A DNA stretch of 58,352 nucleotides from positions 5,745 to 64,096 of the forward strand of contig JBHLQH010000008.1 of the NCBI GenBank assembly GCA_048884965.1, in the 5' to 3' direction. Position numbers and translations under genes: made by a program. The stretch is from Candidatus Thorarchaeota archaeon. GTDB taxonomy: Archaea > Asgardarchaeota > Thorarchaeia > Thorarchaeales > Thorarchaeaceae. Numbering within the stretch: the first letter of the stretch is position 1; every line of letters starts with the position of its first letter. The notes beneath the pieces were generated by a model. That model was not told the origin of the DNA. It searched no databases and saw nothing but the letters and a program-made list of their open reading frames with translations. Positions 1-7,659 of this stretch are shown here, in pieces.

Positions 1-30
1 TCGCTGGTTCAAATCCGGCGCGGCCCACCA
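1..30 (+). tRNA. 3' end of a tRNA gene truncated by the window edge; isotype not determinable
   Basis: T-arm GCTGG-TTCAAAT-CCGGC, acceptor 3' strand GCGGCCC, discriminator A, encoded CCA. Confidence 0.85.
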
Positions 31-417
31 TTATTTTTTGTAAGATCATTCCATCAAGATAGAAATGACGTTTCTAGTGAATCTGTGCTACCTCTTCCCA
101 CGTCTCCTGTAGTACACCGTTCATGTATACTCGCGTGAACGAATTTAGTAACACTTGGCTCTAGCGATGATAATTGCCATTGAACCTCAATTAGAAGTCT
201 AAATGTTTCATATGATTTGGATAGTGATTCTCAATTTACGTTTGCTATATCAAAATTAATGATGGTATTTAGACTATTCATATTGATTCATTTGGTCCTG
301 AATGTGTGGGGGATATCCACAACGGTTTCCAGAATCCTGACACATCAGCAACTTGAACAACCGGCAGATGATAATCTTATATCTAAGTGAAGCGAACATG
401 TAAACTCAAAAAAGATC

Positions 418-822
418 ATGAGGTGTAAACATTTGAATGTAAACGAAAGACCATCAAAAGCTTTCACCTTATCCCTAAGTGCAGGAATTCTAATACTTTG
501 CAACGCTGTGGCAGTGGGAATTGCATCAACATGGTTTCCTTGGATTTTTCCAATACTTCCAGGGTCGGACAATAACGCAACAGTTCCATTTGCGAGTATT
601 ACAGTCATCGGACTGATTTGCGGTGCGCTGGTACTGTTTGGGGCAATAATGTTGCACGCTAAATTCGAAAATCGAAAGGTATGGGCCATAGTGATAATCG
701 CATTCTCAATACCCAGCGTGGTCACGGGAGGAGGATTCATAGTAGGCTTCATACTAGGAATAATTGGCGGAGTAAATGCAATCAGATGGACACCTAACTT
801 GTCAGCAACTGAATCTCATTAG
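418..822 (+). CDS. small multi-pass membrane protein, function unknown
   Basis: 134-aa ORF with 3-4 hydrophobic segments and a GGFIVGFILGIIGG motif. Confidence 0.7.
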   Translation: MRCKHLNVNERPSKAFTLSLSAGILILCNAVAVGIASTWFPWIFPILPGSDNNATVPFASITVIGLICGALVLFGAIMLHAKFENRKVWAIVIIAFSIPSVVTGGGFIVGFILGIIGGVNAIRWTPNLSATESH

Positions 823-964
823 TTAGTGCCTATGTTCCATTATTGATGAAACATGACAATAACGGGCATAAACCGCGATTGATGGATGATATTTCTAAGA
901 CTGATTAAGAGCAAATGCTTTTGGAGAAATCATCAGGAGGATTATGAGGCATGGGAGTTGTCTT

Positions 965-989
965 GACTCAAATCCGTCGCGGTCCACCA
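965..989 (+). repeat. degenerate direct repeat of the tRNA 3' end (att-like)
   Basis: GACTCAAATCCGTCGCGGTCCACCA matches 6-30 (GGTTCAAATCCGGCGCGGCCCACCA) at 21/25. Confidence 0.75.
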
Positions 990-1073
990 CTTCTCAATCC
1001 CTATCGAAAATAGAGAGATTCATGACTAGGGTTCATCGATATTCGTTTTTTTTCGAGTTCTGATTGCCGCTTA

Positions 1074-2483
1074 TTATTCGCTCAATACAACTCGCTTCAA
1101 TCGCTCTTCGATTTCATCTTTGAGCTTCTCATACCACATGACAATAGTTGCTACATTCAAGCTCATTGTTGTTCTGAAGAAAGATATCAAAGTGTCCGGT
1201 ATTATCGCATCAGAGAAGGATGCATCCAGACGATAGGGAGCATGAGTACTAGCAGAATATGAATATGGTTCAGCCATTTTGTACTCGGTGAATAAGAATG
1301 GTGTATTCATTATCTTTCGTTCGTGTGCATCACAGGTATATCTTATAGAATCGGAATCATGAAAAATCATCAACAGGACAGATTTATGATACTTGTTCTT
1401 AAAGCCCCTTTCATAATCCATTCTGAAAATGACATGGAGAATTTCTTCGATTGTGGACCCTACAGGCATCTCAAGTCCAAAGTGGAATCTTACTTCGTCA
1501 ACAGAAAGTTCATCACTCGATCCAGGTCCAGCTTTTTGAGCAAAGATGCCAAATGAGAGTGTGTGGCCCGTACCGTGAGTTTCTAGAATGTGCTTCAAAA
1601 AGAGTGCGTTTCTATTGTTGGATTCTAACTTCAAAATTCTATCAATGATCTCCAATGCCTCATCCTTTTTCTCGAGAAATCCATAAACTCTTGAAAGATC
1701 CCAAAGTGCTTCAATATCATCTCCATTGATATCAATAATTTTCTGAAGTTTGTCTTGTGCCTTTTCATATTCTTCATAGATAATGTGCAATCTGCTACGC
1801 AACAACAATACTCGTGTGTCTTCAGGATTATTCTCCTGTAAGTGATCAAGAAGCGCTATAGATCTATCATACTCGGCTCCTCCAACAAACAATCTAGCTA
1901 GAAGCAGCAGATAGTCTTCTTTCAAAGCCTCTTGATTTCCCAACAATGCACCAATCCATTCTGCTTCTGGTCTTCCAAGTACTTGATATTGATCTAGCAA
2001 TTTCCTCCATAATTCCAGACGAGTTGGTTCATTTAGGAGTGGTACTCTTGCTGCTTTAAGCTCTTGATGGAGTTTTGCAGAATTCCTATCGGCACTGGCT
2101 ATAGATACTAATTTCCCAACAATGGGGTCTTGATCGCTCATACTACTAATTTGTCTTGTCAAATCTGCTGTAGCTGCCATGAATATATCAGATATACTAG
2201 ATTGTGGCTGCTCGATTGTACCTTTGGAGGGTTCTACATCCAGGTTCTCGTCTTCTATACCTATCTTAATCCATGCAATTCTCTTGCTCGAAGTGCCTTC
2301 AAAGGCTAGCTTAACGATATCTCCTACAGAAGGTACAGGACCCTTAGATTTCCGATCGTATTTCAGAGTGAATCTTGTTTTTCTTGTTATAGTTTCAATT
2401 ATGATTGTCCCAAAATGGAAGCCAGACATTTCGCTAATCTGAGTACTTAGCACTTTTCCTGTTAATTCGACCTCCATAGCCAA
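1074..2483 (-). CDS. tetratricopeptide-repeat protein with a small beta-rich N-terminal domain
   Basis: Helical TPR-like repeats (e.g. ALWDLSRVYGFLEKKDEALEIIDRILKLESNN). Confidence 0.75.
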   Translation of the reverse strand: MAMEVELTGKVLSTQISEMSGFHFGTIIIETITRKTRFTLKYDRKSKGPVPSVGDIVKLAFEGTSSKRIAWIKIGIEDENLDVEPSKGTIEQPQSSISDIFMAATADLTRQISSMSDQDPIVGKLVSIASADRNSAKLHQELKAARVPLLNEPTRLELWRKLLDQYQVLGRPEAEWIGALLGNQEALKEDYLLLLARLFVGGAEYDRSIALLDHLQENNPEDTRVLLLRSRLHIIYEEYEKAQDKLQKIIDINGDDIEALWDLSRVYGFLEKKDEALEIIDRILKLESNNRNALFLKHILETHGTGHTLSFGIFAQKAGPGSSDELSVDEVRFHFGLEMPVGSTIEEILHVIFRMDYERGFKNKYHKSVLLMIFHDSDSIRYTCDAHERKIMNTPFLFTEYKMAEPYSYSASTHAPYRLDASFSDAIIPDTLISFFRTTMSLNVATIVMWYEKLKDEIEERLKRVVLSE

Positions 2484-2536
2484 AACCTCAGAGTGTCTAT
2501 CCTCAAGTGTTCATTATATCCATTTTGGTTAATCGC

Positions 2537-2561
2537 GGTTCAAATCCGGCGTAGCCTACAA
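2537..2561 (+). repeat. second degenerate direct repeat of the tRNA 3' end (att-like)
   Basis: GGTTCAAATCCGGCGTAGCCTACAA: first 15 nt identical to 6-20, 21/25 overall; preceded by TCGC as at 1-4. Confidence 0.75.
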
Positions 2562-2630: not shown

Positions 2631-4901
2631 TCATCTTGTCTGCAGTTTTTCTTTGGTGAGAAATACTATTGCAATGAGAACGACTCCTCCAACAAGAATA
2701 CCACCTGCTATTGATATGTACTGGACAAATATCTCACCTATTTGCAGTCGCGTCGTTGTTTCTGTAGTCGCATCAGTACTTGCTGTGGTATCTGTGGTCG
2801 TTGAATCTGACATATCAGGTAATGATGGAAAGATGTCAATTGAATACGAGGGAAGAGATTTTGTTTCCGAGAGTAGAAGCAATCTTGTTCCATTAGCTGC
2901 AACATTCACATCGAACGAGAGCCTCTGTCCTGAAGATGCTACGCTCCCTAATGATGCATTCTCATCTAGGCTGTGAATCCAGTAATTCCCATCAGGGAAT
3001 CCGAACCGGGAGAGGTCAAGAGTGTACGGAATGGTCCGACTACTATCTTCAAAGTTGCAGACGCCTGCCAGAATGGTATAGGCATTCACCTTTGCTTGAG
3101 TAATGAGAGCATGCTCGGTTTCAGGAGTTGATACAGAGTCGGTTGCATCTATGTAGGTGGCAAAGGCTCTGACTACCTGCCTGTATAGAGAATGAAGAGC
3201 ATCTCTTTCATCGGGATCGAAAGTGTACCATGTGTCCCCAGGTACTTCAGATAGATATCGAAGACCGAAATAAAGCATCCACCCGCTATCGGGTCGAGAG
3301 GAGTTATGATAGAGAAGCAGAGGAGAGTCAGTCAGAAGGGTTGCATTATCATCCTCATCGATAGTGTAGAAACCACCAATGGAGTGATGATCCTCAGTCA
3401 GGTTCTCTCCAGGAAAGAGGTAGGTCACATGATAGGGAATGTCAAATTCCATCTTCAGATCAAGAACATTGGGTTCTGTGATGTTGATAAGCATCTTACC
3501 CTGAATATAGGACTCGGTCAGGTTCTCTTCGATTGAGAATATTTCATTTCGCTGGATTCCGTCCTTGGCATAGATTCCCCCCAGAAAGATTGCATTCCCT
3601 CCAGATTCCACATATTCATTGACCTTTCGTACCGTATCGTCCAAATACCAGTCATCTGTGACTACAAGAAGAGAGTAGCATGAGAGGTCCAAGTCCATAG
3701 TTGCGAAGTATCTGTGATTTACAATATCATATTCGGTGAATAGACCAGCTTGCGCTACATTTGGATAGTATCCATTCCCAATCACCAGCGCTCGTGGAGC
3801 TGGTTCCATGACAGGGAGATAGCTCAACTGCCCAGCTAGATTATCTATATATCTCCAGATTTGGCGACCAAGATTATCAGTTCGAGCATGTCCGAATTTC
3901 CAGACATAGCTATCATTGTTCTCAGGAGCCCAATCGAAATAGCCAATTACGTCTGCACCTGAGAGATATGATACCCAAGTTTCGCGGCGTATCTGCTCGA
4001 AACTGCCTATCTTGTAGTACTCTCCATCTCCTGCTTCATTCAGGAAATCCCAGATAGTACCCCAGAGGTCCCAATGAAGTGGCTTGTTTGGGATGCTGGT
4101 CTTGTATAATCGTATACCTTCGTGTAGCAGCCACGGGTTGTCAAAAGCGTAATAGCAGTCCATGGCATGGATTTCTGCCTTCAGTTCATAGGCTGAGCAG
4201 AGCTCATCAGATAGCCCCCATATTGGAGGCATCATAACATATTGCATGATGAGTGCATGAGGAACTTGTGACTTCACATAGTCATACATGTAGTTGTATA
4301 CCCAGATTGTCTTCTCATTGAGCCATTCAATGAATGTGTATCTCTCTGAATCATTCATCCCATAGATAGGCTTCATGTAGAAACCTGTTTCATCGTTATA
4401 GGTAGCATTGTATTGTCCGATCTGTGGAGAAACAGATCCATAGATCTCTGATTGCCGTAACCATGCAGGCTCCTCGTCCCCCAAGCAGATTGCCCAGATG
4501 TCATCCTTAGCAATGGGATACGCGAACTGTTCTGGTCCTCCTGCATAACTAGGTAGGATTCCATATAGGCTCTCGTTGATCGCTTCCTTAGCGAAGGTCC
4601 TAATGGTCTCATTGTAGTAGATATCCAAGGGATTGCTGACATTATTGTTCCACCATCCCTCACCATGTATTATTTTGATTCCAGCTTGAGCTAGCTCATG
4701 AATGAGCCGGGCATCCGATTCGCCGGCATGACCTCCGAATCCCCACATAGTGAAGTTGCTGTTGATCATTGCTGCCGCATCGTCACATATCCCACCGTGT
4801 CTTCCGCCTACTGCATTGGCAGTCGGTAGGCAAGTTACGGAAAGAAGAAGCAGATTGACCAGAAGAAGCGCGGAAACGCCTCGAGAACCTAACCAACTCA
4901 A
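2631..4901 (-). CDS. exported, C-terminally anchored glycoside hydrolase-like protein (GH-A-like barrel plus GH42-type trimerisation-like domain)
   Basis: N-terminal signal peptide, LGDEEP motif, Thr-rich linker, C-terminal TM helix with basic tail. Confidence 0.55.
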   Translation of the reverse strand: MSWLGSRGVSALLLVNLLLLSVTCLPTANAVGGRHGGICDDAAAMINSNFTMWGFGGHAGESDARLIHELAQAGIKIIHGEGWWNNNVSNPLDIYYNETIRTFAKEAINESLYGILPSYAGGPEQFAYPIAKDDIWAICLGDEEPAWLRQSEIYGSVSPQIGQYNATYNDETGFYMKPIYGMNDSERYTFIEWLNEKTIWVYNYMYDYVKSQVPHALIMQYVMMPPIWGLSDELCSAYELKAEIHAMDCYYAFDNPWLLHEGIRLYKTSIPNKPLHWDLWGTIWDFLNEAGDGEYYKIGSFEQIRRETWVSYLSGADVIGYFDWAPENNDSYVWKFGHARTDNLGRQIWRYIDNLAGQLSYLPVMEPAPRALVIGNGYYPNVAQAGLFTEYDIVNHRYFATMDLDLSCYSLLVVTDDWYLDDTVRKVNEYVESGGNAIFLGGIYAKDGIQRNEIFSIEENLTESYIQGKMLINITEPNVLDLKMEFDIPYHVTYLFPGENLTEDHHSIGGFYTIDEDDNATLLTDSPLLLYHNSSRPDSGWMLYFGLRYLSEVPGDTWYTFDPDERDALHSLYRQVVRAFATYIDATDSVSTPETEHALITQAKVNAYTILAGVCNFEDSSRTIPYTLDLSRFGFPDGNYWIHSLDENASLGSVASSGQRLSFDVNVAANGTRLLLLSETKSLPSYSIDIFPSLPDMSDSTTTDTTASTDATTETTTRLQIGEIFVQYISIAGGILVGGVVLIAIVFLTKEKLQTR

Positions 4902-5456: not shown

Positions 5457-6011
5457 CTAGAAGTACATTCCAGCTCTCATAGGGTAGCGTTTCTTGAAGA
5501 TGCTCTGGGCGGATCTCTCAAGGGAGTCCTGTATCTTCAATACATCTGGGCTGATACTACCTAGATCTGGACGTGTGAAGACCGGGCCAGTTAGAAGGTG
5601 TTCAGCGGAAGTCCGCTCAATGTCCTTGGGTACTATTGGGTCTCTCTGAATAATGGACTCAAGATGTAACCGGGATGCTGCTGGATCTGTCATAGATTCG
5701 AGCAGTTTCTGGATATCCAGATTGTCAAGAGGACGAAGCCCATACTCGGGAGACTCGCGCAGCCTATCTATGGCAGCATTCGAGTCAGAGAGCTCGATAC
5801 CAGCCCCCGTGAACTCCATGGGATTTAGAGATATGAGTTTGAGCTGAAAAGCGGAATCAGGACCGACAACAAGCATTTCACCTCGCGGTGTGCTTAGTAC
5901 TCTCCACCCCCTGGGTGATTTGGAGTACTGACTAAGGATGCGCGGTACAATCTCATCAGCAGGTTCGATATCGGTCAATGTGCTCAATCTATCTATGAAG
6001 ATTCCTTTCAT
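5457..6011 (-). CDS. hypothetical protein
   Basis: 184-aa ATG ORF, globular composition, co-oriented with neighbours. Confidence 0.7.
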   Translation of the reverse strand: MKGIFIDRLSTLTDIEPADEIVPRILSQYSKSPRGWRVLSTPRGEMLVVGPDSAFQLKLISLNPMEFTGAGIELSDSNAAIDRLRESPEYGLRPLDNLDIQKLLESMTDPAASRLHLESIIQRDPIVPKDIERTSAEHLLTGPVFTRPDLGSISPDVLKIQDSLERSAQSIFKKRYPMRAGMYF

Positions 6012-6482: not shown

Positions 6483-6671
6483 ACCCTCTCACCCCACCAT
6501 TTCCAGTGGAGCCAGTCGAGGGCACTCGCTTGTACAAGCCTTGCGGCCCGCATACATACCTATTATACTATGTTGTATATAAATATTTTTGTTTATTTAT
6601 TTTTATAAATATTTATCTATATAAATCAACTTGGAACACGTGTTCTAATAGAATCGAGGAGGTAAGAGGGT
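6483..6671. other. candidate replication origin: inverted ORB-like elements (6483-6512 minus, 6642-6671 plus) flanking an AT-rich stretch (6561-6626)
   Basis: GCTCCACTGGAAATGGTGGGGT on minus resembles the archaeal ORB (TCCAnTGGAAA plus G-string); weaker GTTCTAATAGAATCGAGGAGGT on plus; only 5 G/C in the 66 nt of 6561-6626. Confidence 0.6.
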
Positions 6672-6687: not shown

Positions 6688-7140
6688 TTAGAATGTGTCA
6701 CAGATTCTCCTGATTCGTCCAATCTGAACCAGTTTGACATACGCAAAGTACTCAAAGAGCCTGCTAACGACTTTGGATTTTGCACGAGCGGCAATAGACA
6801 GGAAGAATGTGTATCCCTTGATCTCATGGTTCAAAGCCTTGTTGCATACGAAAATTCGTGGATCAGTGTCCTCTCTTGTCAAATCAAAGGGAGTGGCATC
6901 AGGCTCTTCATCTAGAAGGTTCGAATCAGACAACTCCTGCAACTCCGTACTGATGCCAAAACGCATCATCTCCTTGATCTTGTCCATCAGCTCTGACTCT
7001 GTTTCAGCAAGCACTGTCAGAAGAGCCTTCACTTCAGGAGTTTCGGCGGCCATTGAGGCTTTGTGGTAGTATTGATAGTGATTTGCCACCGTGGTCAAGG
7101 CCAGCTTCAGCATTTGGGTGACAGGGTTTGGTGAACTCAT
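6688..7140 (-). CDS. ferritin/rubrerythrin-like four-helix-bundle protein (degenerate metal site)
   Basis: Two helix-pair halves (PEVKALLTVLAETE; AKSKVVSRLFEYFA); paralog of 7207-7659. Confidence 0.65.
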   Translation of the reverse strand: MSSPNPVTQMLKLALTTVANHYQYYHKASMAAETPEVKALLTVLAETESELMDKIKEMMRFGISTELQELSDSNLLDEEPDATPFDLTREDTDPRIFVCNKALNHEIKGYTFFLSIAARAKSKVVSRLFEYFAYVKLVQIGRIRRICDTF

Positions 7141-7206
7141 AGGACGGTCGGTATGATTACTCTTACTTGTAGAAATGGTTTTGCATTGTAAATACGAGCG
7201 CAGGAA

Positions 7207-7659
7207 TCAGAATGTCCTGCATATTTTGCGGAGCTGCTCAATTTGATGCATCTTGAGGTAGGCGAGATACTCGAATAGGAGACTAACGACCTCGGACTTG
7301 GCCTTTGTTGCAAGATTGAGATAGAGCTTGTAGCTGTTGAGCGCCTTGTCAAGTGATTTGTTGCAGATGAAGATGCGAGGGTCAGTTTCCTCTCTGAAAG
7401 GGTCGAAGGGAGTAGGATCAGGGATCTCATCACGGTCAGGGACCTGTTTGAGCTCTTCAAGCTCGTCAAGGATCCCTGTTGCGATCATATGCTGAATTTT
7501 GGCAATCATTTTGTGCTCTGAATCAGCAAGTACGAGCAGCAGTGCCTTCACCTCTGGTAGTTCAGTCTTCTCTGAAGTTGAAACAAAGAACTCGTGTTGC
7601 GATTTGGCTGAGAGCAATGCCAGCTTCAGCATTGGGTTTAGAGATCCTGAATCATTCAA
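7207..7659 (-). CDS. ferritin/rubrerythrin-like four-helix-bundle protein (degenerate metal site)
   Basis: 150 aa, aligns without gaps to 6688-7140. Confidence 0.65.
   Translation of the reverse strand: MNDSGSLNPMLKLALLSAKSQHEFFVSTSEKTELPEVKALLLVLADSEHKMIAKIQHMIATGILDELEELKQVPDRDEIPDPTPFDPFREETDPRIFICNKSLDKALNSYKLYLNLATKAKSEVVSLLFEYLAYLKMHQIEQLRKICRTF

Follow-up and report, generated by a model that had tools for sequence, protein, structure and literature searches.

The accessible part of the description of additive flexible genomic islands in Alteromonas (PMC4898812) depicts a tRNA hotspot at which the number and order of cassettes vary among strains, with some cassettes closed by a partial direct repeat of the tRNA. 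CIMEs have no integration genes and keep their att sites, and ICE-IME accretion stacks elements at tRNA 3' ends with the newest nearest the gene (PMC5704250). In Prochlorococcus tycheposons, partial tRNA copies separate insertions and new elements push old ones inward (10.1101/2020.12.28.424599). Integrons and CALINs, including archaeal ones, hold mostly single-gene exchangeable cassettes, often with no integrase on the contig (PMC9668308). tRNA-fragment islands are usually found and defined through an integrase, and tools such as Islander therefore discard integrase-free ones. The window analysed here, a stretch of 58,352 nt from contig JBHLQH010000008.1 of a Candidatus Thorarchaeota archaeon (GCA_048884965.1), holds a small and partly decayed, but real, instance of an integrase-free, tRNA-anchored array of single-gene cassettes. 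The searchable literature, which gives partial coverage, yielded no description of such arrays in Thorarchaeota.

tRNA-Val(GAC) and the two blocks behind it

The window opens with the 3' end of a tRNA gene, comprising T arm, acceptor strand and CCA (1-30, forward strand), and ortholog synteny points to tRNA-Val(GAC), with dUTPase upstream and a 184-aa gene downstream as in orthologs. The 5' half lies at contig C8:5613-5644, and its acceptor strand pairs 7/7 with the 3' end in the window; because a 100-N gap just 5' of the window hides the middle of the tRNA, the anticodon assignment is drawn from orthologs. One Logan contig suggests that the tRNA may contain an intron of ~46 nt. As the initial annotation had reported, the last 25 nt (6-30) recur on the same strand at 965-989 (copy 2) and 2537-2561 (copy 3), each 21/25 identical to the tRNA with differing mismatches and 17/25 identical to each other. 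Copy 2 begins in the T loop. Copy 3 has a decayed acceptor part, and its homology continues 5' for another ~6 nt and includes a 1-nt deletion (2531-2561). Across both strands of the 4.09 Mb genome, matches of at least 21/25 to 6-30 comprise the tRNA itself, a tRNA-Pro and copies 2 and 3, with a chance expectation of 0.017 per genome (60 dinucleotide-shuffled 25-mers). Logan contigs from public sediment runs (four examined, from one study that possibly includes the source sample) span copy 2 in three runs and copy 3 in a single run, and the copies thus do not stem from an error of this assembly. In run X2, a contig leads from the upstream DNA of this genome through the tRNA into downstream sequence like that of relative G005, possibly a chimera formed via the shared tRNA and for that reason left out of the evidence. 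Contigs of the same four runs, which drop rare forms and can demonstrate presence but hardly absence, contained neither an excised circle nor a junction that skips copy 2 or copy 3; the circle junctions proposed earlier as a check did not appear there. The GC content of the blocks is 0.39, against 0.46-0.48 in flanking core DNA, and each interval holds one gene, as originally described: a membrane protein, identified here as DUF6114, in the first and a TPR protein in the second.

The distal block is the clearer of the two. Block 2 (990-2536; 1,572 bp repeat to repeat) encodes a TPR-repeat protein of 469 aa (467-469; 1074-2483, reverse strand), recognized by profile match and confirmed by Atlas search; of the candidate homologs scored, two match over their full length (83% and 49%), the closest being from Thorarchaeota. 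In GCA_016933575.1, the TPR gene occupies a 1,571-bp unit between two perfect copies of the repeat, with other DNA on both sides, and this unit aligns end to end with window 968-2550 at 84.7% DNA identity. Block 2 is a real cassette, because the unit recurs end to end between copies with different neighbours. Two contigs of the GCA_016933575.1 MAG have an identical tRNA-derived stretch at their start, running to position 85. This stretch is possibly a long internal copy, and the TPR unit may therefore not rank first in that array. With the TPR protein as query, a metagenome scan returned no loci.

Block 1 (31-964), next to the tRNA, is a trimmed DUF6114 cassette. Its gene (418-822, forward strand) encodes a small membrane protein of 134 aa matching DUF6114 (PF19609; E = 2.7e-8, over the cut-off), with 389 homologs. 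The same tRNA-Val locus in GCA_016840845.1 has four copies, and its fourth unit, of 2,409 bp, carries DUF6114 followed by a 528-aa LRR gene and no integrase. Window 259-966 shares ~80% DNA identity with this fourth unit, and 31-258 has no match in it. By alignment to GCA_016840845.1, what is left of the LRR gene at 894-966 (forward strand) is its upstream region and its first five codons, fused to copy 2, and the rest is gone. On the simplest reading, a deletion removed the LRR gene as far as the T loop of the repeat and left five codons joined to copy 2. In GCA_016840845.1, DUF6114 is also nested between two ~98-nt repeats that cover the LRR start and the region upstream of it, so that non-tRNA sequences apparently serve as targets too. 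Other DUF6114 homologs neighbour another family of repeats or belong to plain operons, and a search of two DUF6114 loci against Rfam, L102 among them, produced no meaningful match. A ~110-nt non-tRNA direct repeat stands between short genes on contig C83 (735, 2845, 3498 and 5350), and related sequence flanks DUF6114 in loci L101 and L102. A conserved 16-nt motif occurs at window 894-909, at L100:8248, 9742 and 10460 and at L124:2084, shortly upstream of several cassette genes and often right after a tRNA copy; it is possibly a shared promoter element.

Beyond the last copy lies a 756-aa accessory gene (2631-4901, reverse strand) with homologs in 15/85 family genomes, not at this tRNA. No closing repeat was detected, the best further match being 14/25 before the core gene, and it is an older insertion. 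The far edge of the variable region is the 184-aa conserved core gene (5457-6011, reverse strand), present in 72/85 family genomes. Further on are a very AT-rich palindromic stretch (6585-6630) and tandem 150-aa paralogs (6688-7659), of which relatives have one or two.

Arrays at tRNA-Val and other tRNAs among relatives

About 70 orthologous tRNA-Val loci were fetched, and those that include the tRNA as well as the downstream core gene were counted as complete (n = 48). An extra copy (at least 19/25) is absent from 32/48 of the complete loci, and the other 16 have 1-4; in 13 empty-site loci, the tRNA and the core gene are at most 132 nt apart. Closed units (n = 42) span 392-6,040 bp, mostly 0.4-3 kb, and 32/42 hold one gene. 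Gene orientation is mixed, with 27 along and 24 against the tRNA direction, and the two window genes are opposite. Across the family, copies end at the CCA and have ragged 5' ends, giving lengths of 20-70 nt, and the shortest cluster at the T loop, where they start. Decay increases slightly with distance, from 19.8 of 21 in the first copy to 18.3 in the last, in a small sample (n = 9) of kin that are not independent. Besides the TPR unit, a second shared unit ranks third in G081 and first in G049. The empty sites in relatives, together with the recurrence of the TPR unit with both ends at repeats and other neighbours, support the earlier proposal that repeat-bounded modules were gained at this tRNA: presence, absence and changed rank or neighbours are all seen on comparing the locus. 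Neither fixed synteny nor frequent 21/25 matches genome-wide, the two outcomes named beforehand as counting against the initial annotation, was found. The modularity of the locus is thus displayed by the repeats, the empty sites, a unit with changed neighbours and the trimming of block 1, and we put the probability that the blocks are exchangeable cassettes at roughly 0.85.

G066 and G061 share a unit (90.6%) in which whole T arms are swapped between the tRNA and the copy. In G003 (L124:3786-4628), an old tRNA-Val with two introns is interrupted precisely ahead of its T loop, with no duplication, and the insert carries a complete new tRNA-Val gene plus a 553-bp unit. Among records with the orthologous tRNA pattern, 4/5 are named Thorarchaeota. 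Upstream of tRNA-Val in G005 (L030), three tRNA-Phe-type 3' ends are spaced by 1,323 and 855 bp. Apparent T-loop or T-stem introns missed by ARAGORN occur in the tRNA-Val of G032, G038 and G071 and in this genome's contig C7 (121253-121360 and 66298).

Arrays are not confined to tRNA-Val. A genome scan for tRNA 3' fragments, as had been proposed, revealed a seven-copy array behind tRNA-Ala(GGC), crossing the junction of contigs C91 (its end) and C9 (1-11600; L069, L073), with a DNA methylase, an LVIVD protein, a choline-kinase-like protein and a beta-helix protein as cargo. Five of its copies have in common an A-to-C change in the T loop that tRNA-Ala itself lacks, which suggests homogenization among copies or insertion at internal copies. 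Similar tRNA-Ala arrays are present in G002, G003, G005, G009, G035, G044 and G095, and none was found in G014, G032, G038 or G043. Intron sequence is present in some tRNA-Ala copies and missing from others, and the copies therefore derive from different alleles of the tRNA gene; T-loop hybrids occur in the arrays of G035 and G005. The scan also recovered single 3' copies 857 and 1,711 bp behind two other tRNAs (C34:1-882 and C7:1499-3327), as well as an inverted copy close to the tRNA on C49 (C49:1209). Separately, two dense clusters of divergent tRNA genes, 19 at C4:160883-163299 and 5 at C9:108216-108648, are mostly free of introns and contrast with the scattered, intron-rich tRNA set of this genome. 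Spaced short direct repeats outside tRNAs (C17:2176, 8348 and 11003; C8:115667 and 119489) may be further arrays.

Search for a recombinase and candidate routes of insertion

Profile searches of this 95.7% complete MAG (PF00589, PF00239, PF07508, PF16795, PF01548, PF01797, PF01867 and PF00078) detected no tyrosine or serine recombinase, IS110, Y1 transposase, Cas1 or reverse transcriptase, and a custom HMM built from 18 family tyrosine recombinases, run with filters off, also had no match. The original observation that no integrase was in view thus extends from the array to the whole genome, and the stand-alone tyrosine recombinase that had been anticipated was not found there. Six-frame ORFs of every array locus contain no tyrosine recombinase, and no backbone gene recurs among 219 array proteins. 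PF00589 proteins occur in 29/85 family genomes. The absence of PF00589 from this genome, even of an Xer-like form, is shared with 56/85 other family genomes, and all 14 controls have it. In the fetched DNA around 19 Thorarchaeota integrases, up to 10 kb on each side, neither a credible tRNA nor a credible fragment of one was found; the single ARAGORN prediction there lies across the integrase gene and has no T-arm motif. No integrase-bearing element was seen at tRNA-Val or tRNA-Ala in the ~90 loci fetched. The genomes are MAGs, in which such elements may be missing and integrases are often left unbinned.

In the mechanism that we propose, a unit consisting of one gene, its own flanking DNA and a copy of the tRNA tail would recombine with the tRNA gene at its T arm or close by, restoring the tRNA and displacing its old tail downstream, and older units would shift distally and decay. 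The motor would most likely be RadA, a family present here, or a low-specificity recombinase, acting on repeats of 20-70 nt, rather than a dedicated integrase. Circular intermediates, insertion mainly at the intact tRNA, the direction of growth and the enzyme are what we infer from these patterns. Crossover points seem to vary, as the T-loop hybrids and the arm swap indicate, and on that account host exchange driven by homology is slightly favoured over a visiting integrase. Homologous recombination on 20-25 nt is inefficient, and the first repeat-bounded unit cannot arise by homology alone. The T-loop clustering of the shortest copies and the split tRNA of G003 suggest a site-specific cut, against a homology motor, and subsequent gene conversion might account for the hybrid and swapped T arms. 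Taken jointly, a cassette array at the tRNA-Val(GAC) 3' end and a host motor driven by homology stand at about an even chance. Copies 2 and 3 are decayed, and the array in the window may therefore now be inert.

The strongest competitor, which we regard as possible but the less probable account, has the same cassettes moved by a tyrosine integrase acting in trans, supplied by a virus, plasmid or integrative element that visits the cell and has the tRNA T loop as its target, with CIME-like accretion. The tRNA 3'-fragment geometry is the classic footprint of a tyrosine integrase (PMC4383910). The T-loop starts of the shortest copies, the T-loop hybrids and the PF00589 proteins elsewhere in the family fit this account, and the low-specificity homology recombined by some archaeal integrases (PMC8371274) would blur the exchange point. 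Against it, neither this genome nor any array locus has an integrase, the 19 family integrases show no credible tRNA site within the fetched DNA, several different tRNAs and apparently also non-tRNA sequences are used, and the whole-arm swap of G066 and G061 misfits one fixed overlap. The recombinase in trans invoked by the initial annotation was accordingly not borne out, and the exchange points appear variable. A more tentative proposal, less likely than not, is a host-encoded, target-agnostic capture system of Thorarchaeota that would stack single accessory genes, circulating as small circles, behind conserved ends, both the tails of many tRNAs and further conserved motifs, using recombination outside the families searched.

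Reduction of larger, integrase-bearing elements by deletion, leaving inert blocks never mobile in their present form, is improbable. The trimming of block 1 to five LRR codons on copy 2 speaks for that history, as do the decay of both copies and the lack of junction variants at them in the contigs. The deleted-relic alternative raised at the outset holds in part, for block 1, but the larger parent of that block is itself an integrase-free cassette. The TPR unit keeps both ends elsewhere beside other neighbours, ORFs of array loci show no tyrosine-recombinase match, most units measure 0.4-3 kb and hold a single intact gene, and shared units in different order weaken the case further. Far less probable still is a target-specific nuclease, or an RNA/cDNA process, that cuts the T loop and lets repair insert the unit. 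The G003 tRNA, split exactly before the T loop with no duplication, is what such cutting would leave, but the only LAGLIDADG_3 match in this genome is an intein in ribonucleotide reductase, and neither reverse transcriptase, Cas1, IS110 and Y1 transposase nor a recurrent backbone gene in the 219 proteins was found. Chance similarity or mis-assembly, for which the assembly gap within the tRNA and the X2 contig joining upstream DNA to different downstream sequence might be cited, can be set aside given 0.017 expected matches per genome, contigs that bridge both copies and homologous units that end at the same repeats elsewhere.

Comparison with known systems

The arrays described here are integrase-free, small, exchangeable and common in an Asgard lineage, occurring at a third of complete tRNA-Val loci and at several other tRNAs. 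If the motor is host-encoded, they would represent an undescribed route of gene acquisition in archaea near eukaryotes, one made testable by its defined short sites; target-agnostic host capture, if true, would be an analogue of the integron that works by another principle, in a lineage related to the ancestors of eukaryotes.

The initial label 'integron-like' holds for behaviour and fails for machinery. Single-gene units predominate, and shared units take other neighbours or ranks, as in integrons. Integron cassettes are bounded by attC and served by IntI and attI, whereas the boundary here is a tRNA tail and the genes, read in both directions, bring their own flanking spacers (PMC9668308). 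No attC R''/R' core boxes occur on either strand within ~100 nt of copies 2 and 3, no PF00589 or custom-HMM match that could represent IntI was obtained in this genome, and the near-equal gene orientations at tRNA-Val show no co-orientation. CALINs lack IntI too, and the absence of IntI alone therefore does not exclude a CALIN. The genes that mark casposon, IS110 and IS200-type elements (Cas1, DEDD recombinase and Y1 transposase) were not found in this genome.

The geometry is that of tRNA islands, with a restored tRNA and a co-oriented, displaced 3' fragment downstream. On the sublocation of the crossover, the shortest copies and the hybrids point to the T loop and the G066/G061 swap does not. 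Tycheposons and Islander elements each carry an integrase, unlike the units here (10.1101/2020.12.28.424599; PMC4383910), and Islander tDNA islands, for which an integrase is required, peak in size at 13.6 and 39.9 kb, compared with 0.4-6 kb (PMC4383910). The repeat-bounded, recombinase-free units match CIMEs in structure. CIMEs are decayed ICEs or IMEs beside, or built by, an integrase-bearing element, and neither such a partner nor any remnant of one was found in the arrays (PMC5704250); descent from, or tandem arrangement with, an ICE or IME at the same site was not found among the ~90 Val and Ala loci and the 19 integrases. Additive islands share a fixed site at which cassette number and kind vary among relatives. 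As far as the accessible text on Alteromonas goes, its cassettes are bacterial and multi-gene (metal resistance, hydrogenase), in contrast to the mostly single genes of ~1.5 kb here (PMC4898812), and in this genome no integrase was found. The additive islands of Alteromonas with partial tRNA repeats, along with CIMEs, are the closest known systems.
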